Of a stretch of DNA of 64,000 nt, positions 12,215 to 63,552 are shown piece by piece (the stretch's first letter is position 1; the number at the start of each line of letters is the position of its first letter). Under the pieces are notes generated by a model. It did not search any database. It had not been told where the DNA came from and was given only the letters and a program-made list of their open reading frames with translations. Both the position numbers and the translations under genes were made by a program. Location of the stretch: the NCBI GenBank assembly GCA_040384485.1, contig JAZKJH010000002.1:150235-214234 (forward strand), read 5' to 3'. This DNA comes from Patescibacteria group bacterium. GTDB lineage: Bacteria > Patescibacteriota > Minisyncoccia > Phycocordibacterales > DATDWN01.

Positions 12215-12292
12215 AATCTTTATATCACAAAACTAGGGTATTCTCATAAAACAAAAGGAAGATTTGAAGATCTTCCTTTTATACATTGGGTC

Positions 12293-12475
12293 CTAGGACA
12301 CATTACTATGTTGCCGGTTATAAATATGTGTGGCAATCATTGCCGCAACCAAATATACCAATCCAAATTCCCAAAACTTGGACTCATTTCCAAAAATAAT
12401 TCCGTACACAGCAGTGACTGAAATACCGCAAAGAAACGCGAATCTGAAACGGTCTGAATTGAATGGAACTTTCAT
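12293..12475 (-). CDS. hypothetical small membrane protein
   Basis: 60 aa, two hydrophobic segments; weak support. Confidence 0.3.
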   Translation of the reverse strand: MKVPFNSDRFRFAFLCGISVTAVYGIIFGNESKFWEFGLVYLVAAMIATHIYNRQHSNVS

Positions 12476-12534
12476 TAGATTCCTCCTATTGGTTATCCTA
12501 CAATAAAATATATCACTCGTCTAGCTTTAGATGA

Positions 12535-12571
12535 ACAAAAAAATCAGGGTTGCCTGTTGGACAACCCTGAT
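12535..12571 (-). terminator. intrinsic terminator downstream of the 12575-12994 gene
   Basis: 10-bp stem atcagggttg/caaccctgat; on the minus strand it is followed by an 8-nt U-run. Confidence 0.6.
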
Positions 12572-12574
12572 AAG

Positions 12575-12994
12575 TCACGAGAAGAAATTCTTAACTTTCT
12601 GCCAGAAACCAGGTTCGGTCTCTGACATGTCGAATGTCTCCCTTACAGGAGATGCTGGATAGTTGGGCGTTCGTTCTCGCTCTGGAAGGGCCTGATCTCC
12701 AAACCTCATAGGATGCCCCATGAGTGCCTTTCCGAAACTGAAAACGTATGCCATAACGCAACCCCCACCGGCATCGGAGTAACAAAATGCCAAGTCCTCG
12801 GCACCACTCGCAACGCTGATAACTTCGCCAGATCGAAATGTCCGACCACAGTTGTCGCACTTTGTTTTAGACCCCTTATACTTCGCTAGCTCGTAATAAG
12901 GGTCGTCGTCGGGAACGTACCCATCACTCACCTCAATTCCACCCATCCTCGCACCTCCAAGAATCGCGACACCTTCTATCTCTCCTGCTGCCAT
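12575..12994 (-). CDS. hypothetical Cys4 (zinc-ribbon-like) protein, in a high-GC islet
   Basis: Likely start MAAGEIEG... (GGAGG 6 nt upstream); CDNC...CYSDAGGGC cysteine pairs; GC visibly higher than flanks. Confidence 0.5.
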   Translation of the reverse strand: MAAGEIEGVAILGGARMGGIEVSDGYVPDDDPYYELAKYKGSKTKCDNCGRTFRSGEVISVASGAEDLAFCYSDAGGGCVMAYVFSFGKALMGHPMRFGDQALPERERTPNYPASPVRETFDMSETEPGFWQKVKNFFS

Positions 12995-13050
12995 AAGCAA
13001 CCTCCGATTACCAAACTATCACCTTTGAATTAATTGTCAAAATTTTGTAT

Positions 13051-13094
13051 AAAAAAAACGAGAGTTACGGACGATGTATTGTCCATAACTCTCG
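13051..13094 (-). terminator. intrinsic terminator between the two genes of the high-GC islet
   Basis: cgagagttacgga...tccataactctcg hairpin with 8-nt U-run on the minus strand. Confidence 0.55.
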
Positions 13095-13099
13095 ATGTG

Positions 13100-13624
13100 T
13101 CACTGAAGATCGAAGTTACGCTTCAGTGTGTCGGCCGGAATGTAGATTTCGTACTTCTCCCTGTGTGGAGCGAGCGCGATCCAGTCATGCCATGCCGTTT
13201 CCAGTTTCCTTGTATACTTTTTGATTGAAGGCTTGTTTTCATTTCCTTCAAACAAGGTCACGTTGTCGCGAACTGGAATTTTTCCTGGACGAATCCCGCC
13301 GTTTCCTACTTCGGTGTAGTAGAAGTAGTATTCATTAGACTGAATTACGCCGGTGCCAAGAAAGAAACTTCCGTCACCACGACTGACACCGCGGAGGTGA
13401 ATCAAGTTAGTCACTTCCGGTTTTGACCAGCCATGACTCACAAAATCACCGACGATATAGGCGACAACTGCTCCTAACCCTAGACCAAACATACCAACAA
13501 AGATCGCCATCATCATGATCGGCATGTAGTCGAACAGGTCTTTTGGTGGCATCCAGGCGGCTTCAAAACCCAAAAAGGTCCCAAATACCAAACCAATAAG
13601 GCCAAAAACTAACACAACAAGCAT
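13100..13624 (-). CDS. hypothetical 2-TM membrane protein with C-terminal soluble domain, in a high-GC islet
   Basis: Probable start MLVVLVFGL (AAAGGAG 6 nt upstream); two TM helices; no recognised domain. Confidence 0.5.
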   Translation of the reverse strand: MLVVLVFGLIGLVFGTFLGFEAAWMPPKDLFDYMPIMMMAIFVGMFGLGLGAVVAYIVGDFVSHGWSKPEVTNLIHLRGVSRGDGSFFLGTGVIQSNEYYFYYTEVGNGGIRPGKIPVRDNVTLFEGNENKPSIKKYTRKLETAWHDWIALAPHREKYEIYIPADTLKRNFDLQ

Positions 13625-13719
13625 CCTCTGCTCCTTTTGACTCTGATATAGTGTGCACGATTGCACAAATTTCCTAGTAGGAATTATACACTATAATATA
13701 AATATTGTCAATATTTATA

Positions 13720-22042: not shown

Positions 22043-22068
22043 ATGCAATAAGTATAACATACGAAAAA

Positions 22069-22101
22069 AGCTACTTACCACAGAGAGTGTGGTAAGTAGC
22101 T
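22069..22101. terminator. perfect 14-bp hairpin, bidirectional terminator-like
   Basis: agctacttaccaca gagag tgtggtaagtagct. Confidence 0.55.
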
Positions 22102-22114
22102 TAGAACCGAATGA

Positions 22115-22327
22115 TCAGGAACGAGCGTGGGCCTTTTTGGGCTTGCGCTTCTGGCGGTCTTGGAAATACGCGACCGGAAAGCGAAGCAGGAACATCACAA
22201 CAAATGCGATGACGACCCGCTTGAGGGAAAACTCGAACGAATTCCCCTCGGGCACCATGAGGTGCGCGACAACCATCCCAACAAACATTCGTGAAAGAAC
22301 CCAGTTGCCAAAAATCGGAAATTTCAT
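22115..22327 (-). CDS. small 2-TM membrane peptide with basic C-terminal tail (about 70 aa), in a high-GC islet
   Basis: Internal start MKFPIFGNWV... is preceded by AAAGAGG; two hydrophobic helices, ends ...QDRQKRKPKKAHARS; the ORF-track N-terminal extension overlaps the upstream gene's frame region and is probably not translated; coordinates +-2 nt. Confidence 0.45.
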   Translation of the reverse strand: MKFPIFGNWVLSRMFVGMVVAHLMVPEGNSFEFSLKRVVIAFVVMFLLRFPVAYFQDRQKRKPKKAHARS

Positions 22328-22355
22328 TTTTACCTCTTTCAATTGTGATGTGTAC

Positions 22356-22511
22356 TTAATTGTATTCCACTTCAATCCTGAATGTATCTCCGTGCGCACT
22401 AACGAGACTGCCAATTGCCTCATACGGGGTATTGCCACAACCCCAGATTTCGGGGTGACCATCCAGACAGGCATGGTAATCATCGCTACGCTTCGTGATC
22501 ACAATCTTCAT
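22356..22511 (-). CDS. HicB/UPF0150-like antitoxin-fold mini-protein (51 aa; not in ORF track)
   Basis: Hand translation: MKIVITKRSDDYHACLDGHPEIWGCGNTPYEAIGSLVSAHGDTFRIEVEYN; AAAGGAG 7 nt upstream; pattern xDDYxAxxPExxGCGxTxxEAIxxL matches the UPF0150/HicB N-domain consensus; coordinates +-2 nt. Confidence 0.5.
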   Translation of the reverse strand: MKIVITKRSDDYHACLDGHPEIWGCGNTPYEAIGSLVSAHGDTFRIEVEYN

Positions 22512-22542
22512 CAAGGTGCTCCTTTGTCTAAGGTTTAAATAA

Positions 22543-22571
22543 ATTATATATGGATATCAAACTTTTGTCAA
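22543..22571 (-). promoter_or_regulatory. consensus sigma70 promoter for the HicB-like gene (TTGACA-17-TATAAT)
   Basis: Minus strand reads cTTGACAaaagtttgatatccatatATAATt, about 35 nt upstream of the start codon. Confidence 0.5.
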
Positions 22572-24619: not shown

Positions 24620-24652
24620 AAAAAAATACCACCCGGGTTTAACGCCGGGTGG
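24620..24652 (-). terminator. intrinsic terminator ending the minus-strand ABC operon
   Basis: ccacccgggtttaacgccgggtgg hairpin with U-run on the minus strand. Confidence 0.6.
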
Positions 24653-24690
24653 CTTGTATCGCACAATGCGATACTCAAACAAAGAACAAA

Positions 24691-25503
24691 TTACAAACTG
24701 GCAAACTGACCTTCGATTGCCTTGACGAAATCCGCGAATTTCTGGGTTTCAGTTACTCCCGGAATCCAGCAAAGATCAAGTGCTTTGAGATCGTAGTCCC
24801 CTACAACCCTCGCACCCGATGTCACATTCCCAGCTTCATCGTGGTCACGACCAAGCAGGATCACTCTGTCTGCCGTTGCACAGGCCATGCGAATGTCATG
24901 GGTTGTGACAATAATCGTGTTCAACTCGTGAGCATTTGCCATTTCAGTGATCAGGATTCTGGCTCTCTCCTTACCGAGGATGTCCAGGTTGGCAAATGGC
25001 TCATCCATCAGAAGAAAATGCTTTGAACACATCATCTGCTGGATAATAGCGACCCTCTGTCGTTGACCACCGGACAACTGAGACGGATAGTTTTTGACCA
25101 CACGGGTCAAGCCAAACCGTTCCAGATACTCCATGGCAATTTTTTCGCCAGTTTTTCCGCCCACAACATCCTTTTTCGAAACCTCGAAGGCTCGAACAAG
25201 GTTACCCAAAACTGTCCGTGACTCGATGAGTGGATAGTCCTGAGCAACAACACCCACTTCTCCCTGTCTTACTGGTTCAGTGTGGTTGTTAATGTAGATA
25301 CCACCTTCGGTGGGTACCTGCAGACCAGCGATGCACCGAAAGAGTTGTGTCTTACCGATGCCCGAGGGTCCGAGTAGAGCCACAATCTGTCCATAGCCAA
25401 GGGTGTTGTAAATCTCAAACTCGAGATCTTCCAAAACCTGGGTCGTTTTGAATGACAACGAAACCACTGCCCTCAATAGCCGTTCACCGACTTGGTATTC
25501 CAT
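24691..25503 (-). CDS. ABC transporter ATP-binding protein (SsuB/TauB-like)
   Basis: 270 aa; Walker A GPSGIGKT, signature LSGGQRQRV, Walker B LLMDEPFANLD; high GC. Confidence 0.85.
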   Translation of the reverse strand: MEYQVGERLLRAVVSLSFKTTQVLEDLEFEIYNTLGYGQIVALLGPSGIGKTQLFRCIAGLQVPTEGGIYINNHTEPVRQGEVGVVAQDYPLIESRTVLGNLVRAFEVSKKDVVGGKTGEKIAMEYLERFGLTRVVKNYPSQLSGGQRQRVAIIQQMMCSKHFLLMDEPFANLDILGKERARILITEMANAHELNTIIVTTHDIRMACATADRVILLGRDHDEAGNVTSGARVVGDYDLKALDLCWIPGVTETQKFADFVKAIEGQFASL

Positions 25504-26375
25504 TATTTTTTTCCTCCCTCACGAAGACCAGCCCATGGAAAAATCTTTCGAGCCTTCACAAAACCGAAGTCAATGAGAAGACCGACAATCCAAAGAAGAA
25601 TCTGGATGGCGTAAACTTCATCCAAATTCCAGGTTCTCTGGGAATTCAAAAGTAGTGTACCAACACCACCTTCGGACCTGGCGATACCTTCCACAGCGGT
25701 CAGCATCATCCAGCCCATTGCCTGGTTCTGACGAAGAATTTCAAGCATTTCAGAGGCACGACCCCGAAGGTCTGTCTCGTACATTGCCTGCCATTCTGAC
25801 ATCCCCATCGTTCGCATGTAATCTCGCTCGGCTTGGGGAACGGCATCAACCATTCTTGCCCAGCCAGCGATACAAAATGCACCCACAAACACAACCAAGA
25901 TAGACAGCTTTAAGCTGTGTGCCCCGGAGGTGTAGTAAGTCAAAATGAGAGTAATACCGGCAGTGCTCAAAAACCTGAAGTTTCCAAACACAGTCACGAT
26001 ACCCTTTGTCACCGACAAACTTCTTGCAATGACTGTCAAAATCCCGATTGGGATAAGGATCAGAATCATTTGAAAGTTGAGTGTCAGACTGACAATAAGT
26101 TCTCTTCCGAGAGCGTTCTCGGTCCAGAGCTTTCCAATTGCATCAACAATTGAAACAGGTCCTGGGAATGTCGACTCAGGAATCATCATCCAAAATCCAA
26201 TTGCAATTGCAATGTGGACAAGAGTGATGACTCGCATCGCCGAACTTGGCAAAGGGACATGCGGCAAGAAAGCTGCAATAGCTTTCCTTCCCCATGTGTT
26301 TGCATTAGCAACACGAAGATTCAAACTCGGTTCTACCGACATTGCAACATCGCGTTTTTTCGACTCTTCTGACAT
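25503..26375 (-). CDS. ABC transporter permease (SsuC/TauC-like)
   Basis: 290 aa; 6 TM; start overlaps the ATPase stop by 1 nt. Confidence 0.8.
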   Translation of the reverse strand: MSEESKKRDVAMSVEPSLNLRVANANTWGRKAIAAFLPHVPLPSSAMRVITLVHIAIAIGFWMMIPESTFPGPVSIVDAIGKLWTENALGRELIVSLTLNFQMILILIPIGILTVIARSLSVTKGIVTVFGNFRFLSTAGITLILTYYTSGAHSLKLSILVVFVGAFCIAGWARMVDAVPQAERDYMRTMGMSEWQAMYETDLRGRASEMLEILRQNQAMGWMMLTAVEGIARSEGGVGTLLLNSQRTWNLDEVYAIQILLWIVGLLIDFGFVKARKIFPWAGLREGGKK

Positions 26376-26571
26376 TTTGCCCTTCCTTTGTAAAAAACTG
26401 TAACTGTCAAAGATCTAATCGTGGACTGATTTTTAAACCCTTCCACCAAACCACTTTCCTGTACTCATTTCTGAATACTTGAAAGGGACTTGGAAAAGGG
26501 TCCGATAGCTGAGCAAGCCCAACTATCGGACCGTAGATTAACCTTATCTTCTACAAGGTGTTAAAGAACAA

Positions 26572-28449
26572 TTATCGACCGATGGTGATTTCCACCCGTC
26601 GATTCCGTGCTCGTTCCGAAGCCAAGTTCTGATTGGCTTCCGGACTGAGAGGCCGGTCGGGACCCATGCCTGACGCGTTCAAGCGTCGGGTATCAATGGC
26701 CCCTCGGGCAATCGCGAGAATCTCCCTTTTCACGCTTTCGGCGCGACGGAAAGACAAACTGCGATTCAAGTCAGCAGACCCCGTGTTGTCCGTATGACCG
26801 ACGATGTCGGCCTTCAGGTTACCGGTTGCAAGCTGACGGTAAATCATTTCGATGGTTGAGAACGAACTGGGGAGTACCCGGTCCGAGCCAACTTCGAAAT
26901 TGATTGCGTAGCTGGTGTTACCAACAACTTCCGATACTGCACCTTCAGAAACGGCTGCAACATCGGCTTTGCCAGCATTCACACCAAGTACTTCGTTCGC
27001 CTTGGCAAGAGCACCCAACTCGAGGATTTCATCCACGGGCTGAAGCTTCTTGATAACAGTCGGCGCAAGATCATGGATCATGGCGCCATACTGTTCATAG
27101 ACGGCAGCGTAAATGTTTGCGCCACCATCCAGACCGTAGTACTGCATCGCATCAGCGTTGTTCCAGACTCGGCTTCCACCGAACTGAACGTCGTATCCCG
27201 CCTTGTTACGATGCCGAACACTCTTGTAAACCTGGACCCATCCGGGCTTTTCAGAAGTACCCTGGGCTGCGAGACCACCCTGGCCCTTGTAAACCAATAC
27301 AGCCATCTCAGCTGCACGCGTAAGCGCAGCGTCTGACGACTTGATCATGTCACTGGCTTCCGAGGTGCCTGCGAAAATCGCCGAAAGTGAATCAACGTTC
27401 TGCTTGCTCCAACCACGAATGGTCAGAACAGTTGACGCCATCTGGTTCAGGTTCTCTCGAGTTGAGATAGCTGAGACCAGTGTATCGCGACTTCCCTTTG
27501 CCATATTGAAATCGGCGGGGCTCCACGATGCAAATGCTTCAACGCAGACGTTCTTCTTTTCGCCGGTGGGTTTTCCGTTGCGGATTACCACTCGTTCTTC
27601 GCAATAAGCGGTGTTGTACTTCTCGACTGCGTCGAGGAAGTCACTGGAATTGAGAAAGTTCACAGCATCAGGATCCCAGGTTTTTTCATCCGGGTTGACC
27701 TTGAGGCCATTCACTTGCGCCCAAAACAGTGCCAGAAGATGGTCACCGTCCCAGAAGTAGTTGGCGATGAGCCCGCCGTTCTCGGTGTTTTTACCGAGAG
27801 CCATTTCGGGCTGGTCCTTCCACTTCACAGGAACGAAAACCTGATCTTCACCGTAGGAAGAACCCACAGCTCCTGCAACAACAACTTCGCAATCCCGTTC
27901 GGGAAGCTTGTTGTCCTTGCAAATCTGACGCATGACTTCGTTCCACTGAGCAATGTAGGCCGGGCCTCCATCACCCATCACGATGACAGCCTGAACTCCA
28001 GCTTCGGGATTTCCCCCTCCACCATTTTCCGCCCATGCTTTCGCAAAGGCAGTGAGTTCATTCTTCATCTGGTTGGTGTCATCTTCGTTGATGAGCTTCA
28101 GATAGGCTCCCCGCTTACCGATGGTTGAATCCGTCAAAGTGACGGGACCGCCATTGGCAAGAAAAAGACCGAACTGTGCGCTCCACTTCATAACATGAAG
28201 TCGAATCTCCTTATTGGCGTTCCGCGTTGCGGGACGACCAGTGGGAAGAACAACCTTCACGTTTGTTGCGACATTGGTACCGACTTCACTGGAGCCAAGC
28301 TCCACTGCCTTCGGCACAGCTGCCTCCCGAATCTTGCGATACGGAAGAAGACTGTCCTGGAAATACCAGCCAAGAGCAACGAGGATGAGAACAAAAGCGA
28401 CTTTGGGAACAATTCCCAGTTTCTGCAGAAAACTCATAACACGCTCCAC
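26572..28449 (-). CDS. periplasmic substrate-binding-protein-like domain fused to a C-terminal OmpA/MotB peptidoglycan-binding domain
   Basis: 625 aa; N-terminal anchor; C-terminal motif GHTDNTGSADLNRSLSFRRAESVKREI...NRRVEI is classic OmpA_C; the central ~450 aa resemble the NMT1/SsuA-type binding fold (tentative). Confidence 0.6.
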   Translation of the reverse strand: MERVMSFLQKLGIVPKVAFVLILVALGWYFQDSLLPYRKIREAAVPKAVELGSSEVGTNVATNVKVVLPTGRPATRNANKEIRLHVMKWSAQFGLFLANGGPVTLTDSTIGKRGAYLKLINEDDTNQMKNELTAFAKAWAENGGGGNPEAGVQAVIVMGDGGPAYIAQWNEVMRQICKDNKLPERDCEVVVAGAVGSSYGEDQVFVPVKWKDQPEMALGKNTENGGLIANYFWDGDHLLALFWAQVNGLKVNPDEKTWDPDAVNFLNSSDFLDAVEKYNTAYCEERVVIRNGKPTGEKKNVCVEAFASWSPADFNMAKGSRDTLVSAISTRENLNQMASTVLTIRGWSKQNVDSLSAIFAGTSEASDMIKSSDAALTRAAEMAVLVYKGQGGLAAQGTSEKPGWVQVYKSVRHRNKAGYDVQFGGSRVWNNADAMQYYGLDGGANIYAAVYEQYGAMIHDLAPTVIKKLQPVDEILELGALAKANEVLGVNAGKADVAAVSEGAVSEVVGNTSYAINFEVGSDRVLPSSFSTIEMIYRQLATGNLKADIVGHTDNTGSADLNRSLSFRRAESVKREILAIARGAIDTRRLNASGMGPDRPLSPEANQNLASERARNRRVEITIGR

Positions 28450-28541
28450 TGTTAAACTGTTTACGAAATTAGGTTTGTATCACCACCAGTTCACTTTGAA
28501 CTAGTGGTGATACGTTAGAGAAAAAATTCTTCTTCCTCTTC

Positions 28542-47129: not shown

Positions 47130-47135
47130 ATTACC

Positions 47136-47170
47136 TTGACTTATTTATAATAATATGTTAATATTAGGAA
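47136..47170 (+). promoter_or_regulatory. promoter-like element of module 2
   Basis: cTTGACTtatttataataatatgtTAATATtagg (TTGACT-17-TAATAT). Confidence 0.35.
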
Positions 47171-47190
47171 AGGAAACAAAAGGAGCACCC

Positions 47191-47562: not shown

Positions 47563-47575
47563 CAAGGAGATATGC

Positions 47576-47749
47576 GTGTCAGGAGAACGATGGTACGTTA
47601 TGTGGGCTCTTTGGGTCATTGCATGCTACCTCATATGGGGTGGTAGGACAGGGACCGGACAGCCACAAATCATGTTTGCCGTGATCATATTCGGCGTGGT
47701 AGCCGGTATCGCGCTCGATGGCCTAATCAAGGCAATCAAGAGTAAATGA
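47576..47749 (+). CDS. 2-TM mini-protein, paralog D (57 aa, GTG start; not in ORF track)
   Basis: VSGERWYVMWALWVIACYLIWGGRTGTGQPQIMFAVIIFGVVAGIALDGLIKAIKSK; AAGGAG 6 nt before the GTG; aligns along its whole length with paralog B (RW..W.LW.I..Y.IWG...AIK.K). Confidence 0.4.
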   Translation: MSGERWYVMWALWVIACYLIWGGRTGTGQPQIMFAVIIFGVVAGIALDGLIKAIKSK

Positions 47750-47762
47750 CTTTTCAACACCG

Positions 47763-47795
47763 CGCTCGGGGAATTCCTCCCCGAGCGTTTTTTTT
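47763..47795 (+). terminator. intrinsic terminator carrying a conserved motif
   Basis: cgctcgggga attcct ccccgagcg tttttttt; perfect 10-bp stem. Confidence 0.65.
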
Positions 47796-47876
47796 AACTC
47801 TGTCGTAAAAATATATTTTATCATCTAAGTAGACTTTTAATACTGTTTGTGAGATTGTTTTACAGGGAGAACACTG

Positions 47877-48116
47877 ATGATAAAAGTGATCATAACGTAC
47901 CATTCAGATTCAGGAGAACTGATTAAGCCTCCAGACCACTATCCCGCTGTGATTGATTTTCAGTTGAATAATGCATGCGAAGTGACGGATGACAAAGTCA
48001 AGGACATGGTAGAATCTTTTCTAAGATCTGTACACGACGAAGTTCTACCAAATGGAATTGAAATCGGCTGGGGGTTTTCCGACTCTATAACACCTCTAGT
48101 GGATCACAAAAAATAA
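47877..48116 (+). CDS. hypothetical small protein (79 aa)
   Basis: MIKVIITYHSDSGELIKPPDHYP...; GGGAGA RBS; the N-terminus loosely resembles the HicB-like mini-protein at 22356-22511. Confidence 0.45.
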   Translation: MIKVIITYHSDSGELIKPPDHYPAVIDFQLNNACEVTDDKVKDMVESFLRSVHDEVLPNGIEIGWGFSDSITPLVDHKK

Positions 48117-48131
48117 TGACATACCAATAAT

Positions 48132-48175
48132 GCGTTCGTGGAGTTCCTCCCTCGAACGCATTTTTATTATCCATC
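48132..48175 (+). terminator. intrinsic terminator
   Basis: gcgttcgtggag ttcct ccctcgaacgc attttt. Confidence 0.55.
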
Positions 48176-53442: not shown

Positions 53443-53477
53443 TATACAACAGAAATGAATAAAATAGAAAAAACCGC

Positions 53478-53687
53478 CTAAGCGGTTTTGGACTTTCCTT
53501 TTCTCCTTGGCACAAAGAATGTTGCTTTGGATGTGATGGGTTTGCGCTCATTCTCGATTAGACTGAGCATGCTCGCCCTGTGTTCGGGCGAAAGAGGTTC
53601 CAATTTCAATTTCCTTTTTGGAAGATTACTTGGGGTATTACCCGAGACATCAACATGCTTACTTGGAAAACTGATTCTTCTGGTCAT
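53478..53687 (-). CDS. hypothetical small basic protein (elevated GC)
   Basis: 69 aa; AGGAGA 5 nt upstream. Confidence 0.35.
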   Translation of the reverse strand: MTRRISFPSKHVDVSGNTPSNLPKRKLKLEPLSPEHRASMLSLIENERKPITSKATFFVPRRKGKSKTA

Positions 53688-53696
53688 TTCTCTCTC

Positions 53697-53832
53697 CTAA
53701 AAAACATATGCTGGCCAAAAAATAACAGTCGAAAGTTGTGAATACCAAGGCTCGTTCTTCGTAGAAGTGATGCCGTTCACACCTGCTCCCAACAAAAGCC
53801 ACCCAAGAAGAATCAAAGACCATGTAGGCATA
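53697..53832 (-). CDS. candidate 44-aa membrane peptide (not in ORF track; coordinates +-1)
   Basis: MPTWSLILLGWLLLGAGVNGITSTKNEPWYSQLSTVIFWPAYVF; GGAGGG 5 nt upstream; ends 10 nt before the next gene. Confidence 0.3.
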
Positions 53833-53867
53833 ATGCCCTCCACTTAGAATCCTACTGGTTTCTAGTC

Positions 53868-55082
53868 TTAAGTCAATTTATTTTTATAGTATCTCTCCAC
53901 AAATTCCTTTTTATATTTCAAAAAGTCCCCGCTGTTTATCTCTTCTCTCATTCTATCTACCATACTAACTATAAAATGTGTGTTGTGTATTGATGCCAGA
54001 ACTCCTGCCAACATTTCTTTCTGATGAAAGAGGTGGGCCATATATCCACGAGAAAAGTTTTTGCATGCATAACACTCACAGCCTTCATCTATTGGACCTG
54101 GGTCTTCTCTGTATTCTTGGTTATAAATATTTACTTTACCGTCCTTTGTATACACACCTCCGTTTCTTCCAAGTCTGGTTGGTGCAACACAGTCAAACAA
54201 GTCACAACCTTTCTCAACTGCCATGAACAAGTCGAGCGGTTCGCCAATCCCTAGTAAATGTCTTGGTTTTTCTTTTGGCAAAATATTGTTGCACCACTCA
54301 ACCGCTTTTTCCATATCTTCTTTTTCAAAAGACCCGCCGATACCGTAGCCGTCAAAGTCGAGTCCTGCCATAAACTCTGCACTTTCTTTTCGTAAAGTCT
54401 CATCACGTCCTCCTTGAATAATACCGAACAACGCTTGAATTTTTGAATGCTCTGTTCCTTTGTGATATTCCAAACATCTTTTTGCCCACCTGTGTGTTCT
54501 TTCAAGTGCTTCCTTCTGATAGTGAAGTGACTCGTACGGAGAAGTACATTCGTCAAATGCAAAAATAATATCTGCCCCTAAATTATGTTGAATCTCGATG
54601 GATTTTTCTGGAGTAAAATAATGAGCCGAACCATCAGAGTGTGAACGGAACATAACTCCGTTGGGGTCTATGCGAGCTATTTTCGGCAGTCCATCCTCTG
54701 GTGCAGTTACTGGCAAAGCTATTTCATCTTCGTGTTTTCGGTGACCTATTTTACTCACACCTTTTTGTCCGTATGCCGCACCGAGTGAAAAAACTTGGAA
54801 ACCCCCAGAGTCAGTCATGAGAGGTTTGTTCCAATTCATAAACTTATGCAATCCTCCCAGTTTTTTTATTTTCTCATCCCCTGCTAGATACAAATGGTAC
54901 GTATTAGCGATTATTACTTGTGTTCCTGCCTCGGAAATATCTTTCGGTGACAAACCTTTTACTGTACCTTTGGTTCCCACAGACACAAAAGCCGGTGTCT
55001 GTATGTCACCGTGGGGAGTAGATATGGTTCCGGTTCTAGCAAGAGTTCCTTGAAGTTCTTTGTTAATTACGAATTTAAACAT
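53868..55082 (-). CDS. tgt: queuine tRNA-ribosyltransferase
   Basis: 404 aa; zinc site CxCxxC...H (CECYACKNFSRGYMAHLF) and the catalytic Asp region. Confidence 0.9.
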   Translation of the reverse strand: MFKFVINKELQGTLARTGTISTPHGDIQTPAFVSVGTKGTVKGLSPKDISEAGTQVIIANTYHLYLAGDEKIKKLGGLHKFMNWNKPLMTDSGGFQVFSLGAAYGQKGVSKIGHRKHEDEIALPVTAPEDGLPKIARIDPNGVMFRSHSDGSAHYFTPEKSIEIQHNLGADIIFAFDECTSPYESLHYQKEALERTHRWAKRCLEYHKGTEHSKIQALFGIIQGGRDETLRKESAEFMAGLDFDGYGIGGSFEKEDMEKAVEWCNNILPKEKPRHLLGIGEPLDLFMAVEKGCDLFDCVAPTRLGRNGGVYTKDGKVNIYNQEYREDPGPIDEGCECYACKNFSRGYMAHLFHQKEMLAGVLASIHNTHFIVSMVDRMREEINSGDFLKYKKEFVERYYKNKLT

Positions 55083-55122: not shown

Positions 55123-55155
55123 AATAAAAAAACCGCGTTCCAGAAACTGGAAGCG
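55123..55155 (-). terminator. intrinsic terminator (minus strand) immediately upstream of the tgt start
   Basis: ccgcttccagtttctggaacgcgg followed by tttttttatttttat on the minus strand. Confidence 0.5.
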
Positions 55156-55159
55156 GAGT

Positions 55160-55560
55160 GCTTTGAAACAAGAACTGAAGGTTTCCCCTGGCCCCCTAAC
55201 ACAGAATTGTATTAGGGGAACCAGGTTTCGTTGACCTAGATCACTATCAGACAGGCTACTGTTTGACTATATGACGCCGAGCTCGAACGGAGCTGGGCAT
55301 AGTCGGATCCACATTACCAAGCAGATCACAGTAAACCGGGTCAAGGTCGAAGAGTGTCCAGCTCCTCAACTTTCAAGTCTGACGAGATGTGGACACCACC
55401 GAGCGAGGCTCGATAGCATCTCTGAGAAGAGCCTTGGCATAACAACACCCTAAGCAGCACACCGTCACCCGTTTTTTTTCTTTTGGTAGGCGGGGCGGCC
55501 ACTCAGTACCCATTAAGGCCATTGGGATTCCTTTAGCTTCTCGTTAGCAATCTTTTACTA
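55160..55560 (-). ncRNA. candidate structured non-coding RNA / leader (GC-rich, about 400 nt, no ORF above 30 aa)
   Basis: GC much higher than the flanking intergenic DNA; multiple stable hairpins (ggtttcccctgg/ccaggggaaacc, cgagctcg, cgagcctcgctcg); ends in the intrinsic terminator above; class not identified. Confidence 0.3.
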
Positions 55561-55660
55561 CTTTAGCATACTATATAATATTTGTCAAATATTCAGAGCT
55601 TTAATATAAAAATAACCCTTAAATAAGGGTTATTTTTATATAGTTCGAAAATTTAGAATT

Positions 55661-60114: not shown

Positions 60115-60142
60115 TTGACATAAAGATAAATTAATGTATAGT
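60115..60142 (+). promoter_or_regulatory. near-consensus sigma70 promoter (TTGACA-16-TATAGT)
   Basis: TTGACAtaaagataaattaatgTATAGT about 60 nt upstream of the ATG at 60206. Confidence 0.4.
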
Positions 60143-60205
60143 TTTCCCAGGACACCATACAGGTGTACAGGTGCTAGCGTACCTACTTCCAATGGAGAAA
60201 ACGCG

Positions 60206-60646
60206 ATGGCAAAGAAAGTAACGCTCTTTATCGACATTTCACTCAAGGCCCAGCTGAAAAGGAGGGAGGAGGAAATGGAGCCCTCTCCCGGTTTTTCCTC
60301 AGCAATGTCCATGTACTCCGCATTCATCAACCTCTCCATGAATCCATTCTGTGTGGGTTCCCTGGCTGAGATTGATGACAGTTTGCTTGGAAAGTTCTTG
60401 GACAAGAAGGGTAACACTTCGGATGAAGTGTTCAAGGTCTCTTCAAGAGTAGAAGCGAGCATGCGATACTTGCGGGCCAACGACCTTCCGATCGTGAGAT
60501 TGGAAGTGCAGTGCTTTGCAAAGTTCAGCAAGAAATCGCTTGCCGTCTACGCCTTTGATTTCGATGAAGACAACGGAAGAAACGTCGACATCAGAGGATT
60601 CGTCGATGAAGAAGAGTTTAAGGAACTCTTCATGGCTTCACTGTAG
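60206..60646 (+). CDS. hypothetical protein (146 aa, high GC)
   Basis: Start MAKKVTLFIDISLKAQLKRREEE (GGAGA RBS); the ORF-track start at 60134 lies inside the 5' UTR; no domain recognised. Confidence 0.5.
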   Translation: MAKKVTLFIDISLKAQLKRREEEMEPSPGFSSAMSMYSAFINLSMNPFCVGSLAEIDDSLLGKFLDKKGNTSDEVFKVSSRVEASMRYLRANDLPIVRLEVQCFAKFSKKSLAVYAFDFDEDNGRNVDIRGFVDEEEFKELFMASL

Positions 60647-60653
60647 GCGACCC

Positions 60654-60692
60654 GGGCTACCACACATTGATTTGTGCGGTAGCCCTTTTTTT
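60654..60692 (+). terminator. intrinsic terminator
   Basis: gggctaccacacattgatttgtgcggtagccc ttttttt. Confidence 0.6.
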
Positions 60693-60733
60693 ATACATAA
60701 ATAAAAACCCCGTCGAAACGGAGTTTTTATTTA

Positions 60734-62020
60734 TTAGTCTAAGAATGTCAGAGCCTTTCCTTTTCTTCCTGCTCTTCCTGTTCGTCCTATTCGGTGAACA
60801 TAGTCTTCGTATGTAGCTGGCAAGTCAAAGTTGATAACGTGAGAAACTCCACTGATATCCAAGCCTCTAGCCGCAACGTCTGTTGCTACTAGTATTTGAG
60901 CTCTATCCTCTTTAAAGTTCTTAAGAGATCTTTGTCTTGCAGACTGATTTTTGTCGCCGTGAATAGACTCAGCCTTAAATCCCCTGTCTCTCAAAACTGT
61001 TGTTAATTTCTCAACACCATGTTTTGTTCTACCGAAAATAAGGACTTTCCCAAAGTCTGGTTGAATAAGCATGCTGTGTAGTACATCAAGTTTATTTTCA
61101 CCTCTAGCAACTCGCACCACGTCTTGGTCAACGTTTTTAGAAGTATCTTGAGTCTTTACAGAAATCATAACAGGTTCGTTTAGGAACTCTTTTATTAGTC
61201 CGTTTACTTCTGGAGACGTGGTCGCTGAGAAAAACAGAGTGTGTCTGTTTTTCGGCATTTCCTTCATCATAAAGCGCATATCGTTTACAAACCCCATGTC
61301 TAGCATTCGGTCTGCTTCGTCCAATACAATAGTTTTAAAGTGTTTGAGTTCAAGAACTTTTTTCTCCATAAGATCTTTTAGTCTTCCAGGTGTTCCGATA
61401 ACGAATTCATTTCTATATCGTAGTGCTCTTATCTGCGGACCTATTGGAGCTCCTCCCACGCACACAACTGAATATATTTTCATTTTATCTAAAAAGCCTT
61501 TCAACTCTTCTTCGATTTGTATCGCAAGTTCTCGAGTTGGAACAACAACCAAAATATTTTCATTTGGTTGAGTAATAACTTTGTTTATAAGAGGTATTAG
61601 AAAGGCCGCAGTTTTACCTGTTCCTGTGTTTGCAATACCAACTAGATCCATTCCTTTTAGAATATGTGGAATAGCCTTGTCTTGAATAGGTGTTGGAGTT
61701 GTATAACCTTTCTTCAGAATGTTTGCTTTCAAACTTTCGTCTATCAAAAAATCTGTAAAGTTATGATCTGGAACAAAGTGCACTACTTCTTCAGTAATAA
61801 CAGCTTTGCTTACAAACAAACTTGGGTTGATGTGTTTACTGTGGCCACCTCCACCTCGTCCTCCTCCACGAGAAAATCTACCTCCACCTCCGCTGGATGG
61901 CCTAACACTTGGTCTTCTTCTGTCAGCGTAACCTCCTCTAGCAGGAGTGCTTGATTTGCCTGCAAATGCAGGTCTTTTGAAAGTTCTGGTTCCAGAACTT
62001 CTTGGTGTATTTCTTTCCAT
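60734..62020 (-). CDS. DEAD-box ATP-dependent RNA helicase with RGG-rich N-terminal tail
   Basis: 428 aa; Q-motif, GTGKTAAF, VLDEADRMLDMGF (DEAD), SAT, HRIGRTGRAG. Confidence 0.9.
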   Translation of the reverse strand: MERNTPRSSGTRTFKRPAFAGKSSTPARGGYADRRRPSVRPSSGGGGRFSRGGGRGGGGHSKHINPSLFVSKAVITEEVVHFVPDHNFTDFLIDESLKANILKKGYTTPTPIQDKAIPHILKGMDLVGIANTGTGKTAAFLIPLINKVITQPNENILVVVPTRELAIQIEEELKGFLDKMKIYSVVCVGGAPIGPQIRALRYRNEFVIGTPGRLKDLMEKKVLELKHFKTIVLDEADRMLDMGFVNDMRFMMKEMPKNRHTLFFSATTSPEVNGLIKEFLNEPVMISVKTQDTSKNVDQDVVRVARGENKLDVLHSMLIQPDFGKVLIFGRTKHGVEKLTTVLRDRGFKAESIHGDKNQSARQRSLKNFKEDRAQILVATDVAARGLDISGVSHVINFDLPATYEDYVHRIGRTGRAGRKGKALTFLD

Positions 62021-62308
62021 TTGAATTTAAAATTGAGGTGTTTAAGGAACTTGTACTAATTTACAAAATTCAGATCTCGTAAGTTCAAAATGGTGCAATG
62101 CATCCAACAATTAGAGAATTTATCTCTTAAAGAAACTAGTGAGAATTACTCAATGCAATAACTATATATTATCAGCCATTTTTTGTCAACGTAAAACTTG
62201 ACATATGTCGTATAAAATGCTATCATTATACCCAGATTTTGTGTGCGCGGCTGGTCCAAGAGGACTAGGTGTATACAAACAGAACGTTTGACAGAAAGGC
62301 AACAAAGC

Positions 62309-63532
62309 ATGAAAAAATGGTTTGTTCTCGTCGCTTTGCTTTTGTTTGTGGGGTTCGCTCCTCAGATGGAAGCGCAGTCATTGCAAGAAACGCACCCGCG
62401 TCCTCTTGAGCAGTACACCGTTCAGCAAGGAGACACTCTGTGGAGTCTTGCTGGTGAACACTTGAACTCACCCTTGGGGTGGGAACAGTTGTATCAGTCG
62501 AATCCATTCCTCCGGGAACCAGGGCGACGGTGGATCACAGAAGACGGCAAGGTTGTCGTACTTTTGAAACCGGGCGAAGTCCTCAATGGGCTCAATGTGC
62601 TCGGATTCAGAGAAACACCTCGTCCAGACCTTCTTTCAACACTGAAAGGTGAAACAAAGATAGTCGAGATGCTTCCAGAGTGGGCCTGGATTCTATTTGT
62701 AGCGCTGGTTCTGCTAATCATCTTATTAGTGATGCTGGCAAACTGGCAGTACAATCGATACCATAAAACTCGGGATCGCCTTCGTGACGACATCAGCTCA
62801 TTGGAAGCAATGACTGCTGACAGAGACGAGGCACTGCGCTTATATGCAGATCCTGTGAACTCTGGACCGCCGATGGTTCCTGGAGGAGTAAACCTCGAGA
62901 CTGCTCCGCAACACTTCCAAAACATGGGAGTTCGCGAATGGGCATCTGCAACAGGAGGACGGATTGTTGAGCCGGATCGTATCCAGATTCTCAGCATCAT
63001 TCCTGGTCACGCATGGGGCCGACTCTCAGTCCGATACCGCAATGGTACGCTGCCTGAGGAACGGGTATTGACTGGTCAGCGGGTCTTCCGTGGTCAGGTA
63101 CGCATGCCTGATGGTACGGAGGAAACTCTGTACATGTTGCAGGGTTGCGGAAACGACGTTCGCTTTTCGGGAAACAGAAATGTTCCTGGAGCCGACTTCC
63201 GTTTCGTTCCCGACAGCGAGCAGGTTCCGGCACCCCGTGTTGAAACCCCGGCTCCGCCGACACCTGTTGCAACCGCAACGGTGGCGACAAGCAACCGAAA
63301 TGAGACTGGAACAGTTCCAGTCACACCTCTGGTTGATCGAGTTGAACAGCTTGGACACGAGGTCAAGCAGATGCTCGAGACCGAAATCAACACGGACCTC
63401 AGGTTTGTGTTCAAGCGTCGAAGGACTGACGGACGTCCGATGCTGATCGAGGTGAATGGCATCGACACGAACGAAACTGAATTCACGGTCAACGTGACCG
63501 AATCTTCAGTCTCTCTTCGATACATGAACTAA
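62309..63532 (+). CDS. LysM-domain membrane protein with signal peptide (high GC)
   Basis: Start MKKWFVLVALLLFVGFAPQMEA (signal peptide); LysM YTVQQGDTLWSLAGEHL; central TM; about 250-aa C-terminal domain of unknown function. Confidence 0.6.
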   Translation: MKKWFVLVALLLFVGFAPQMEAQSLQETHPRPLEQYTVQQGDTLWSLAGEHLNSPLGWEQLYQSNPFLREPGRRWITEDGKVVVLLKPGEVLNGLNVLGFRETPRPDLLSTLKGETKIVEMLPEWAWILFVALVLLIILLVMLANWQYNRYHKTRDRLRDDISSLEAMTADRDEALRLYADPVNSGPPMVPGGVNLETAPQHFQNMGVREWASATGGRIVEPDRIQILSIIPGHAWGRLSVRYRNGTLPEERVLTGQRVFRGQVRMPDGTEETLYMLQGCGNDVRFSGNRNVPGADFRFVPDSEQVPAPRVETPAPPTPVATATVATSNRNETGTVPVTPLVDRVEQLGHEVKQMLETEINTDLRFVFKRRRTDGRPMLIEVNGIDTNETEFTVNVTESSVSLRYMN

Positions 63533-63552
63533 CACTCCCTCGGGAGTACACA

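Follow-up and report, generated by a model that had tools for sequence, protein, structure and literature searches.

Why should a chromosome whose housekeeping genes are rich in A and T carry short GC-rich blocks between them, and what keeps these blocks GC-rich? We addressed this in a window of 64,000 nt (the whole stretch of DNA analysed, from a Patescibacteria group bacterium), in which a sequence-only reading had marked 13 GC-rich blocks in a CPR-like backbone and had proposed either many independent acquisitions of small cassettes or a chimeric assembly.

Composition and architecture of the GC-rich blocks

The whole window has a GC content of 40.6%. The 13 blocks comprise 14,713 bp (23% of the window) with a mean GC of 48.3% vs 38.3% outside; measured block by block the values are 43–52%, slightly lower than the 48–55% first estimated. 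For 10 of the 13, the GC content lies above that of all outside windows of equal size (z 3.4 to 37); the other three are marginal, i.e. 34228–34620 (45.3% GC, top 1% of same-size windows), 36422–36900 (42.8%, top 4.4%) and 53478–53832 (43.4%, top 4.5%). A two-state HMM called 8 segments (10,431 bp, 16% of the window, GC 0.48–0.55), but only 0–468 bases in five full shuffles, and the SD of GC in 400-bp windows is twice the binomial expectation. GC3 of ORFs of at least 100 aa is bimodal (means 0.335 and 0.532; BIC −115.7 vs −103.1), and pooled GC at codon positions 1/2/3 is 0.486/0.346/0.333 in the backbone and 0.560/0.404/0.521 in the islets. At islet edges the GC step falls at most 50 bp from CDS ends and coincides with promoters, start codons, stop codons and terminators. 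The compositional mosaic is thus confirmed as genuine. Its backbone, with the ribosomal-protein genes as the most AT-rich genes of the window, belongs to the CPR as first read, its relatives being Zambryskibacteria/Paceibacteria MAGs. The claim that all unassigned genes are confined to islets proved wrong: outside them lie AT-rich ORFs that match nothing in Pfam or NCBIfam, including 14725–15951, 23802–24518, 32781–33140, 33568–34152, 35477–36337 and 39801–40550. Two divergent tRNA-Ala genes (40695–40768, TGC, minus strand; 41028–41099, GGC, plus strand), the only Rfam matches across the window, are GC-rich for an ordinary reason and are not islets.

About 15 short GC-rich units lie between housekeeping genes, most of them with their own promoter and terminator. 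A typical islet opens with a consensus sigma-70 promoter and a ribosome-binding site, carries between one and five small genes or else a structured RNA, and closes with an intrinsic terminator; as promoter–gene(s)–terminator cassettes the units, here read from sequence, resemble phage morons. Searching for TTGACA-N16-18-TATAAT with a match of at least 11/12, we found 10 promoters in the window, 8 of them directly 5' of islet units (13711, 22571, 30501, 30544, 36736, 41244, 60115, 62198) and none in the ribosomal-protein stretch 1–12000; the five promoters cited earlier (22543, 30474, 36736, 41238, 60115) were all recovered. Counted by ORF, near-perfect promoters belong to 5 of 12 GC-rich ORFs vs 1 of 63 others (p = 2.5e-4). 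Most units end in strong hairpin-plus-T-run terminators, in line with the bracketing first described, and in relatives terminators accompany 22/96 GC-rich vs 22/247 other ORFs (p = 0.001). The reported lack of mobility genes and repeat scars also held: no integrase or transposase domain was matched in any ORF scanned, and a search for flanking direct repeats found none. In the majority of window units we see Shine-Dalgarno sites together with the GC1>GC3>GC2 pattern typical of coding DNA, and the Pfam domains among islet proteins are ABC_tran, BPD_transp_1, OmpA, DUF4342, ADK and LysM.

The individual units

On the minus strand, the cassette 12543..12994 holds an ORF (12575–12994, 139 aa, GGAGG ribosome-binding site, GC 0.51; terminator 12571–12543) whose product has no match in Pfam, PHROG or PADLOC. 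The neighbouring membrane-protein cassette 13059..13711 (minus) has a 12/12 sigma-70 promoter (13711–13683), an ORF at 13100–13624/13666 (GC 0.47, GC3 0.52) and a terminator at 13094–13059; its protein is alone among those of the islets in having a clear PHROG match (phrog_8077, E 4e-13), and it gives weak 30% tblastn matches to two phages. A two-ORF cassette, 22068..22571 (minus; 12/12 promoter 22571–22543, terminator 22102–22068), encodes 51 aa (22356–22511) and 70 hydrophobic aa (22115–22327), and its block 22115–22511 (GC 0.489) is higher in GC than any outside window. The five-gene GC-rich operon 24628..30501 (minus) runs from a promoter at 30501–30473 (11/12 plus TG) through genes for a coiled-coil protein (29652–30383), a membrane/coiled-coil protein (28542–29651), a 621-aa protein with a C-terminal OmpA domain (26572–28437), a permease (25503–26375) and an ABC ATPase (24691–25503), all on the minus strand, to a terminator at 24653–24628. 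Divergent from it stands the DUF4342 cassette 30544..30905 (plus; promoter 30544–30571, 11/12; protein 30591–30905, GC 0.53), and a DUF4342 gene adjoins the five-gene module also in the contig bearing P0005.

The weak islet 34188..34668 (minus) contains a 130-aa ORF (34228–34620, GGAGG ribosome-binding site, GC 0.453) and a terminator at 34215–34188, and the cassette 36382..36700 (minus) contains a Cys-rich 74-aa ORF (36422–36646, GGAGG ribosome-binding site; terminator 36416–36382). The ORF-less cassette 36736..37037 (plus) is a candidate non-coding RNA: behind a 12/12 promoter (36736–36764) lies a 267-nt transcript-like stretch (36771–37037) that ends in a hairpin plus T-run and has a fold z-score of −3.8. 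A second candidate structured RNA, 55135..55588 (minus) in the tgt|FKBP gap, lacks a credible ORF; its promoter (55588–55560, 10/12 plus TG) is followed by a 419-nt GC-rich stretch (55553–55135) with a terminator at its end, for which the MFE z-score is −6.8 and 0/100 shuffles were equally stable. Neither candidate has an Rfam match or a homologue among the fetched relative loci.

A membrane-protein cassette, 38946..39755 (minus; promoter 39755–39728, 10/12; ORF 39017–39682, GC 0.468, GC3 0.57; terminator 38971–38946), has the same flanks on an independent contig. Adjoining the two tRNA-Ala genes is the cassette 41244..41948 (plus; promoter 41244–41271, 11/12), whose 213-aa ORF (41307–41948, GC 0.48) belongs to a genuine family (52 representatives in 1.84 billion proteins); its AlphaFold model (pLDDT 95.8) has no fold match in PDB or BFVD. 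The uvrC|ddl gap holds an adenylate-kinase-like (Adk-like) cassette, 44360..45078 (minus; promoter 45078–45050, 9/12; divergent ORF 44393–45019, GC 0.48, GC3 0.52; terminator 44381–44360), and the uvrC|uvrA gap an array of four mini-cassettes, 46302..48165 (plus): 46348–46659; 46753–46926 with 46926–47090; 47191–47562 (acidic) with 47576–47749; and 47877–48116. Terminators were called for the first three (46675, 47103, 47762) and promoters at 46302 and 47136, with another seen by eye at 46707; two membrane proteins of the array (54 and 57 aa) are paralogues, and the 3' end with its terminator is duplicated. A weak islet in the uvrB|tgt gap, 53470..53876 (minus; small ORFs 53697–53843 and 53478–53687, terminator 53489–53470, GC 0.434), lies inside a stretch covered by the independent contig L075. 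Between a VTT-domain gene and a DEAD-box helicase we find the orphan cassette 60115..60700 (plus; promoter 60115–60142, 11/12; ORF 60206–60646, GC3 0.62), with its own terminator ahead of the helicase's terminator; among 5.8 billion proteins, the sole match of this ORF is itself. The last unit, 62198..63581 (plus), has a promoter at 62198–62226 (11/12 plus TG), a gene for a secreted LysM/membrane protein (62309–63532, GC 0.52) and a terminator at 63552–63581. Most islet proteins have relatives limited to CPR-like contexts, or none.

Shared signature, inheritance and turnover in related genomes

About 15 Zambryskibacteria-like MAGs of relatives, from other studies and sampled as stretches of ~20 kb rather than as complete genomes, show the same fine-scale mosaic. 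The backbone order tgt-uvrB-uvrA-uvrC-ddl is conserved there, and the gaps FKBP|tgt, tgt|uvrB, uvrB|uvrA, uvrA|uvrC and uvrC|ddl hold other, mostly orphan GC-rich ORFs with GC3 0.5–0.78. In the clade, 60/317 ORFs exceed the median GC3 of their locus by 0.15 or more, vs 5/257 in other relatives; more distant relatives are gapless, with uvrA and uvrC overlapping in L024, L028 and L030. As a sign of turnover, only 17% of GC-rich ORFs vs 53% of the remaining ORFs have a homologue in another locus. The GC-rich islet pattern is therefore a trait of the whole clade, not of a single genome, although many short GC-rich ORFs of the relatives may not be genes, since GC-rich DNA readily yields long ORFs.

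All islets carry one signature. The delta* between islets and backbone is 0.121, compared with 0.047 when the big module is set against the remaining islets (control 0.034 ± 0.012); in samples of 1.5–4 kb, which make these values noisy, islets of relatives are 0.03–0.06 from the window's islets in most loci (two outliers 0.11–0.13) and mostly 0.10–0.16 from its backbone. For some other Paceibacteria backbones the distance to the islet signature is no greater than that among islets (L049 0.052, L066 0.054). Islet genes avoid ATA, AGA, CTA, TTA, GTA and CAA, likewise AAA and NTA codons in general, and are depleted in TA (rho 0.48 vs 0.77); CGA, TTG, GGT, GTT, GCA, TCA and GAA are preferred in both compartments. 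Across codon positions the islets have the GC content that the standard regression gives for a genome of 49.5% GC (GC3 52.1 vs 51.4 expected), i.e. we see no amelioration signal.

Some cassettes are vertically inherited positional orthologues. The LysM gene has syntenic orthologues in L078 (GC 0.51 in a backbone of 0.33–0.39) and L079, a tree congruent with the backbone, and ~51% GC both in the AT-rich genomes (window, L078) and in the 47.5% GC relative L079. In 12 of 15 loci, and as far out as relatives with 47–50% UvrC identity, members of the Adk-like family exceed their background in GC. At 4-fold sites (49–100 per islet gene and near saturation) islet genes are as identical as their neighbours, with GC4 0.38–0.54 vs 0.14–0.36 (mostly 0.14–0.24). 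Equal synonymous divergence and the backbone-like LysM and Adk-like trees thus point to a residence time exceeding one substitution per silent site.

These data, together with the TA depletion and codon avoidance, speak for an explanation without any special pool, in which resident fast-evolving genes would be kept GC-rich by a gene-specific force (mRNA or codon selection, e.g. against UA or A-rich codons, or local biased gene conversion) and turnover would be rapid divergence. We consider it unlikely, as several observations conflict with it. L002 and L003 have flanks of 88–94% DNA and 96–99% protein identity, but Adk-like alleles of only 28% identity between a conserved promoter and terminator, the break points lying just 3' of the −10 box and at the stop codon; positional counterparts of 210–221 aa exist in L002, L003, L008, L009 and L012. 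Because the flanks are 96–98% identical and the L003 allele is 74% identical to that of L008, the L002 allele is a replacement and not the result of divergence. The orphan unit 60115–60700, whose site is a gap of 63 bp in L078 and 7 bp in L079, is a clean promoter-to-terminator insertion, and the five-gene ABC/OmpA module occupies three different backbone contexts (window, L072, L073), being GC-rich in L072 and L073 too. Poorly conserved backbone genes (ddl, a PLD-like gene, the unassigned AT-rich ORFs) are not GC-rich, so that fast evolution alone does not predict GC, and expression level is not the driver, since ribosomal-protein genes are the most AT-rich.

The insertion, the allele replacement and the module with its several contexts and its homologues in GC-rich genomes bear out part of the horizontal acquisition first proposed, the vertically inherited islets running against the rest. 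Taken further, many independent recent transfers from assorted GC-rich donors, with too little time for amelioration, would agree with this insertion and with the module's shifting contexts, with the 30–34% homologues of its OmpA-domain protein in Hymenobacter and other GC-rich genomes (50% in a 58% GC genome), and with the fit of the islets to the codon-position regression at 49.5% GC, without a GC3 deficit. Turnover is also fast enough to outpace amelioration, as L002 and L003 have different islets in most cases. Assorted donors, however, would leave assorted signatures, and we find a single dinucleotide and codon signature, also across genomes, codon preferences common to both compartments, LysM and Adk-like genes that track the backbone, a pattern that is clade-wide, and proteins mostly without relatives beyond CPR-like contexts. 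On the L073 branch, silent sites of the module even gained GC (28 W-to-S vs 10 S-to-W, by parsimony on saturated sites). This makes independent transfers quite unlikely as the general explanation.

It is very improbable that the islets chiefly represent non-coding GC-rich elements (structured RNAs of the kind found in other AT-rich genomes), with ORFs arising by chance: two units without a credible ORF do fold far better than shuffles, GC-rich DNA gives spurious long ORFs on both strands, and most short GC-rich ORFs in relatives lack a homologue, but most window units show the coding features described above, their products have Pfam domains or form protein-level families, one with a high-confidence AlphaFold model, and Rfam matches only the two tRNAs. 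Foreign fragments stitched into a CPR contig by assembly or binning, conceivable in MAGs and given the implausible taxon names of several related records ('Flavobacteriaceae', 'Nitrospira', 'Pacearchaeota'), are for practical purposes excluded, as Logan contigs from a different assembler (L001, L075) are 100% identical to window 36017–40724 and 53311–56038 and cover four islets with both junctions of each, GC steps coincide with gene signals, in close genome pairs the flanks can be aligned as far as the cassette edge, and the same architecture recurs in MAGs of other projects.

A proposed two-compartment chromosome

On balance we favour, as moderately probable, a two-compartment CPR chromosome with moron-like cassettes from a clade-wide GC-rich gene pool. 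In this view the window is a single uninterrupted part of a Zambryskibacteria-like (Paceibacteria, CPR) chromosome, with a syntenic AT-rich housekeeping backbone (38% GC, GC3 0.33) as one compartment and, as the other, ~15 units in backbone gaps (47–53% GC, GC3 0.52; two apparently structured RNA) that would be drawn from a gene pool common to the related genomes. Exchange probably proceeds by homologous recombination through conserved flanks after DNA uptake among clade members. The GC content may be maintained in situ by a GC-ward fixation bias (recombination-linked biased gene conversion, or selection against A-rich or TA-containing codons), an idea that we hold tentatively and whose conversion variant is weakened because swapped non-homologous cassettes form no internal heteroduplex. 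Only slightly less likely is that a GC-richer reservoir (another lineage or replicon) supplies the units again and again, an idea weakened in its turn because no second copy or episome bearing any cassette was seen; the remaining probability belongs to something else. Units are gained as whole promoter-to-terminator blocks, a highly dissimilar allele can take the place of their coding part with breaks just 3' of the −10 box and at its stop codon, and between such events the units pass vertically with the chromosome. Their GC-richness is a stable, shared property of the pool and not the fading imprint of many foreign donors.

Composition and predicted anatomy of the GC-rich units

The window has a GC content of 40.6%, and the compositional mosaic claimed in the sequence-only reading is borne out: its 13 GC-rich blocks (14,713 bp) have a mean GC content of 48.3% compared with 38.3% outside, and ten of them exceed every same-size window outside the blocks, the other three (34228-34620, 36422-36900 and 53478-53832) being only marginal. 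A two-state HMM delimits 8 segments that cover 16% of the window at GC contents of 0.48-0.55 (full shuffles give 0-468 bases), and the GC spread over 400 bp is twice the binomial expectation. The short GC-rich blocks (islets) and the AT-rich housekeeping genes around them (backbone) differ most at silent positions, with GC1/GC2/GC3 of 0.560/0.404/0.521 for 23 pooled islet genes and 0.486/0.346/0.333 for 43 pooled backbone genes, and GC3 of the genes is bimodal (means 0.335 and 0.532). GC climbs from ~0.35 to ~0.49 inside 50 bp of the coding ends; the DNA of the promoters and terminators flanking each unit is AT-rich. Altogether, the islets make up 16-23% of the window, with ~15 units in 51 kb, unit sizes of 0.3-6 kb and a GC excess over the core of 10-14 points. 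The same reading had placed every unassigned gene in the islets, which is not the case, as at least six AT-rich ORFs also have no family match. Two AT-rich ORFs, 4527-5885 (452 aa) and 5942-7153 (403 aa), adjoin the ribosomal-protein/rpoA cluster, where secY might be expected; neither has a convincing family match, and the 452-aa ORF matches only a GlxA beta-barrel, weakly.

A chimeric assembly, which had been considered as an explanation, can be discarded, since an independent assembly of SRR26324625 contains two contigs that match window positions 36017-40724 and 53311-56038 at 100% identity and span both junctions of four islets. RNA genes as the source of the GC-richness were likewise rejected, as ARAGORN and Rfam yield only two tRNA-Ala genes; Rfam 15 gives only two tRNAs in the window, at the gathering threshold and at E ≤ 1 alike. 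Nor is expression level the cause, because the ribosomal-protein genes are the most AT-rich ones, and fast evolution alone does not suffice, because poorly conserved backbone genes are AT-rich as well.

Strong promoters next to the blocks had been noted by eye, and indeed 8 of the 10 sigma-70 matches of at least 11/12 sit directly upstream of islet units, with none in the ribosomal-protein region; near-perfect promoters are found for 5 of 12 GC-rich ORFs and 1 of 63 others (p=2.5e-4). Most units are followed by a hairpin and T-run. Both kinds of signal were called by pattern scans of the sequence, and they point to units with a promoter and a terminator of their own. According to refined gene models, each islet would comprise at least one compact unit of -35/-10 boxes, Shine-Dalgarno sequence, 1-5 ORFs, hairpin and T-run. 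The 6-kb islet holds a five-gene operon (24628..30501, minus strand; hereafter the module). Besides a permease and an ABC ATPase, its products are two coiled-coil/membrane proteins and one protein of 621 aa that carries an OmpA domain at its C-terminus; a divergent DUF4342 gene adjoins the operon. The remaining units encode a LysM/membrane protein, a short adenylate-kinase homologue, small membrane proteins and orphans. A membrane or secreted bias of the GC-rich ORFs was not seen (hydrophobic segment in 24% versus 31% of ORFs), and a HicB-like identity of the 51-aa ORF 22356-22511, suspected by eye, is unsupported by any Pfam match.

Several smaller features deserve mention. Two paralogous two-helix membrane proteins of 54 aa (46926-47090) and 57 aa (47576-47749) lie in neighbouring mini-cassettes, one behind a small membrane protein (46753-46926) and the other behind a very acidic 123-aa protein; the duplicated 3' end and terminator of both form a 53-nt repeat of 75% identity (47062-47114 and 47721-47773). 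A perfect palindrome of 23+23 nt (57972-58017), flanked by xseB and the LOG-family gene convergent with it, probably terminates transcription in both directions.

Two units are candidates for RNA genes. The unit at 55135-55588 (minus strand) in the tgt-FKBP gap consists of a putative 10/12+TG promoter, a GC-rich stretch and a terminator; its 419 nt at 55135-55553 contain no credible ORF (none >53 aa in sense) and fold with an MFE of -166.9 kcal/mol (z -6.8), which makes it a candidate for a new structured RNA. The same gap carries other GC-rich inserts of 200-550 bp in several relatives and none in two (L009 and L013; L numbers denote fetched comparison loci, mostly from MAGs). The unit at 36736-37037 (plus strand), convergent with an EEP-family gene (37034-37792), starts with a perfect 12/12 promoter match; the 267 nt at 36771-37037 have no credible ORF, their ends pair, a terminator closes the stretch and the fold reaches z -3.8, so that it may be a non-coding RNA. 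No homologues of either candidate were found in all fetched loci, and Rfam at E ≤ 10 returned nothing credible on both units.

Recurrence and turnover in related genomes

A search with UvrC led to 70 loci, the nearest at 65-76% identity and either labelled Zambryskibacteria, Paceibacteria or Patescibacteria or bearing doubtful names. The nearest relatives keep the AT-rich order pseudouridine synthase-FKBP-tgt-uvrB-uvrA-uvrC-ddl, and in the same gaps they have short GC-rich ORFs (GC 0.46-0.60, GC3 0.5-0.78) dissimilar to those of the window. Units thus fill gaps in a conserved backbone across the clade. The mosaic amounts to 8-17% of the DNA in the closest ~15 loci and is missing from many other Zambryskibacteria/Paceibacteria loci, where uvrB, uvrA and uvrC adjoin or overlap one another; in L024, L028 and L030, no gap separates uvrA from uvrC. 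ORFs whose GC3 exceeds the locus median by 0.15 or more number 60 of 317 in the clade compared with 5 of 257 in controls, a comparison based on MAG fragments of ~20 kb and on ORF calls that are uncertain in the relatives' GC-rich DNA. The family of the orphan 41307-41948 is also GC-richer than its AT-rich flanks in L080, L083 and L087.

Much bigger blocks of the islet kind occur in other genomes: in three JACCD* metagenome contigs (L080, L081 and L082), a GC-rich island measuring 7 kb or more (GC 0.45-0.63), with ORFs almost all lacking a Pfam match, abuts AT-rich backbone, and a GluRS/GlnRS-type synthetase domain is encoded by the first backbone gene. ORF 33199-33456 (minus strand; 85 aa, hydrophobic, GC 0.45, GC3 0.48, no Pfam match) is kept at 64-75% in L007, L009, L015 and L032, where it is GC-rich too, and seems to be a conserved part of the GC-rich compartment. 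Some records with a CPR-like backbone (L004 and L006 from CAYMIJ01, L073 from GCA_040079895.1, L061 and L067) are labelled Flavobacteriaceae, Nitrospira sp., Pacearchaeota archaeon or Gammaproteobacteria, and many others 'Saccharibacteria'. These labels look like binning or naming errors, to which contigs with many GC-rich islets may be prone.

The content of the slots changes rapidly. A homologue in another locus exists for 17% of the GC-rich ORFs compared with 53% overall (12 of 32 GC-rich ORFs of at least 200 aa versus 446 of 604). Between L002 and L003, the backbone DNA is 88-94% identical (UvrA 99%, UvrC 96%, Ddl 98%), nearly all islets are unalignable, and the Adk-like proteins in the uvrC-ddl gap (L002 11297-11962, L003 9983-10627) share 28% identity. 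Similarity in this slot ends a few bases past the -10 box and returns immediately behind the stop codon; the conserved flank includes both promoter and terminator hairpin. As the L003 protein is 74% identical to that of L008 (UvrC 88%, Ddl 64%), it was L002 that underwent replacement, and L003 and L008 kept the inherited allele. A whole unit has been added at 60115-60700, a clean promoter-to-terminator insertion where the gap measures only 63 bp in L078 and 7 bp in L079; the sole match of its ORF among 5.8 billion proteins is itself. In L072 and L073, the module has different backbone neighbours, and it is GC-rich in both (0.53-0.57 versus 0.34-0.40 in L073). The LysM gene has syntenic orthologues in L078 and L079 and its tree agrees with that of the backbone. 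Taken together, units are inserted as complete blocks or exchange their coding part, and some persist vertically. Exchange of cassettes among clade members would proceed by homologous recombination through the conserved flanks. An exact-protein look-up for strain-level variants showed the species in one sample only.

The Adk-like gene of the window (44393-45019) encodes a short and very divergent homologue of adenylate kinase, which matches Pfam ADK at E 4e-9 and PDB Adk at E 1e-7 and has an odd P-loop, APPYGGKDT; the gene lies in a hypervariable GC-rich cassette. It is the only such gene seen in the window; none was noticed in the ribosomal-protein stretch 424-4434, a region outside the ORF-by-ORF scans. 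If this were the adenylate kinase of the cell, an essential enzyme would be swapped for alleles that are only 28% identical.

Silent-site composition and origin of the cassettes

We applied codon-position regressions from the amelioration literature (Lawrence-Ochman type). The islets fit the equilibrium of a genome with 49.5% GC (GC1/GC2/GC3 of 56.0/40.4/52.1 versus 57.3/40.1/51.4 expected) and the backbone that of a genome with 38.8% GC; the islets have no GC3 deficit, i.e. no displacement toward the host relative to GC1/GC2 of the kind that marks ameliorating foreign DNA. Dinucleotide distances, from small samples, are 0.121 between islets and backbone and 0.047 between the module and the other islets (control: random 6-kb backbone subsets against the remainder, 0.034 +/- 0.012). 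TA is far more depleted in the islets (0.48 versus 0.77 in the backbone), and CG is not depleted (0.98 versus 0.72). The islets of relatives lie at 0.03-0.06 from those of the window in most loci (0.11-0.13 in L003, L021 and L025) and mostly at 0.10-0.16 from the window backbone. Islet genes avoid the codons ATA (0.05 versus 0.43), AGA (0.15 versus 0.53), CTA, TTA, GTA, CAA and AAA; preferences common to both compartments include CGA, TTG, GGT, GTT, GCA, TCA and GAA. At 4-fold sites, the islets use the bases nearly evenly, with both A and T depleted (0.24 and 0.31 versus 0.37 and 0.39 in the backbone).

In silent-site samples that are likewise small, 4-fold identity at conserved residues is 0.40-0.47 for islet genes (~0.25 expected at random) and, comparably, 0.27-0.53 for their AT-rich neighbours (0.29-0.38 expected), with a GC4 of 0.38-0.54 for islets versus 0.14-0.36 for neighbours (0.14-0.24 if XseA and Ddl are set aside). 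No decay toward the composition of the host is seen, not even in positional orthologues near-saturated at silent sites, and the islets have one common composition. Polarised with L072 as outgroup, the module shows 24 G/C-to-A/T versus 16 A/T-to-G/C silent changes on the window branch and 10 versus 28 on the L073 branch, counts that are rough because the sites are near saturation; the backbone equilibrium would predict a ratio of several to one. The same analysis of the LysM gene and its neighbours was dropped, informative sites being too few.

Searches for a source gave the following picture. The OmpA-domain protein has relatives of 50-77% in CPR-like contexts; the next ones, after a gap, reach 30-34% and belong to Hymenobacter and other GC-rich genomes, in which their composition is native. 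The LysM protein has 13 relatives in 5.8 billion proteins, both examined ones being syntenic. Among 1.84 billion proteins, the family of the 41307-41948 protein counts 52 representatives; the AlphaFold model of this protein (pLDDT 95.8, pTM 0.92) has no fold match in Foldseek searches of PDB and BFVD (best TM 0.27). Members of this family (~200 aa) share the motifs DQF, LKxG, TVAPHQY and NKLAGRYL (alignment A1), and the homologue in a GC-rich genome (L086, 6001-6609) adjoins a type III restriction-modification system and a MazF toxin. We saw no second contig carrying any islet protein. A phage or prophage origin was rejected: PHROGs gave one match of unknown function among 20 islet proteins plus generic LysM matches, IMG/VR scans of three islet proteins found no relatives, and tblastn against phage genomes found marginal 30% matches for one protein only. 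The 6-kb module has no blastn match in PLSDB, which speaks against a plasmid origin, and ten islet proteins examined as defence systems have no PADLOC match.

As to what keeps the units GC-rich, the results point in two directions. A GC-rich reservoir is favoured by the arrival of units that are already GC-rich, by their common signature and by a module that is mobile. In favour of a bias that acts in place are the neighbour-equal silent divergence, the congruent LysM tree, the GC gain on the L073 branch and the partly common codon preferences.

Relation to known flexible elements and significance

Phage morons are reportedly associated with Juhala and Hendrix. They are extra units with their own promoter and terminator and deviant GC, added between syntenic genes (PMC3594210). 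Like them, the units described here stand between genes of conserved order, are patchy between genomes and would be transcribed on their own (pattern scans; 8 of 10 promoters at islet starts); they deviate in composition (48.3% versus 38.3% GC, with a step at most 50 bp from CDS ends) and are additions with respect to syntenic relatives (60115-60700 versus L078 and L079; the uvrA/uvrC gap versus L024, L028 and L030). Unlike morons, they reside not in a phage or prophage but between uvrABC, tgt, ddl and a DEAD-box helicase gene in a reduced CPR chromosome, use the same slots across the clade and have one composition for all units; no prophage, integrase or phage structural gene lies near them.

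In streamlined free-living bacteria (Pelagibacter, Prochlorococcus, Salinibacter), hypervariable flexible or 'replacement' islands occupy fixed core positions; they usually span 10-100 kb and centre on surface glycosylation or transport. To our knowledge, they are not noted for a uniform GC excess. The islets resemble them in that divergent alleles of the same function are swapped, presumably via flank recombination, as in the Adk-like slot (compare PMC10734472), but differ in being units of 0.3-6 kb, each with predicted promoter and terminator and 10-14 points GC-richer. As in integrons, the cassettes are small, mostly orphan promoter-proximal genes from a shared pool with high turnover; unlike integron cassettes, they are scattered outside any single array and bring their own promoters, there is no IntI integrase domain, and the unit ends have only generic promoter/terminator features in common, without attC-like repeats. 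Atypical composition and patchy distribution are those of a classical genomic island, but mobility genes and direct repeats do not accompany the units: the scanned ORFs are free of integrase, transposase and relaxase domains, flanking repeats are absent, and only 41244-41948 adjoins tRNA genes. Common recombination sites or scars were also sought; no repeats are common to the unit ends, and promoter regions are alike only in -35/-10. Diversity-generating retroelements do not fit, with no template/variable repeat pair in the window, no RT domain in the ORFs scanned and islet 4-fold sites low in both A and T.

As a rule, the flexible genes of a bacterium have a higher AT content than the host genome, whose composition they gradually approach. 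Amelioration and AT-richer acquired genes are reportedly the subject of work by Lawrence & Ochman (1997), Daubin et al. (2003) and Rocha & Danchin (2002). In line with this literature, the non-core genes stand out by an atypical composition, but with the opposite polarity, the flexible genes being GC-richer. For Patescibacteria, a recent study that used standard predictors of islands and transfers describes both islands and transferred genes in the hundreds, at up to 13% of genome length and with mostly intra-Patescibacteria exchange (mSystems 2025, PMC12455944). Our islets (16-23% of the window) are similar in having mostly CPR relatives; a term search of the study's text found no mention of GC-rich composition, single-gene promoter-terminator units, conserved slots or absent amelioration.

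The mosaic is a real, clade-wide and unusual variant of flexible gene cassettes. Beyond this, we tentatively propose, as a possibility we consider rather doubtful at present, that a reduced CPR clade keeps two compositional equilibria per chromosome: a dedicated process would hold a moron-like pool at ~50% GC beyond silent-site saturation and the backbone at ~38%, through a hidden GC-rich replicon or partner lineage that re-seeds the slots or through cassette-specific GC-ward conversion or selection, and some cassettes would encode new structured RNAs and protein folds. Composition-based binning, island callers and taxonomy tools will read islets as foreign, and islet-rich contigs may be mis-assigned. 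The reversed polarity and the missing drift occur in genomes usually called minimal and static and offer a natural system for asking whether GC content is determined by mutation, biased conversion, selection or gene flow. If genome-wide, the mosaic would make the flexible genes of this CPR clade, the likeliest place for host-interaction, surface and conflict functions, easy to recognise by composition.
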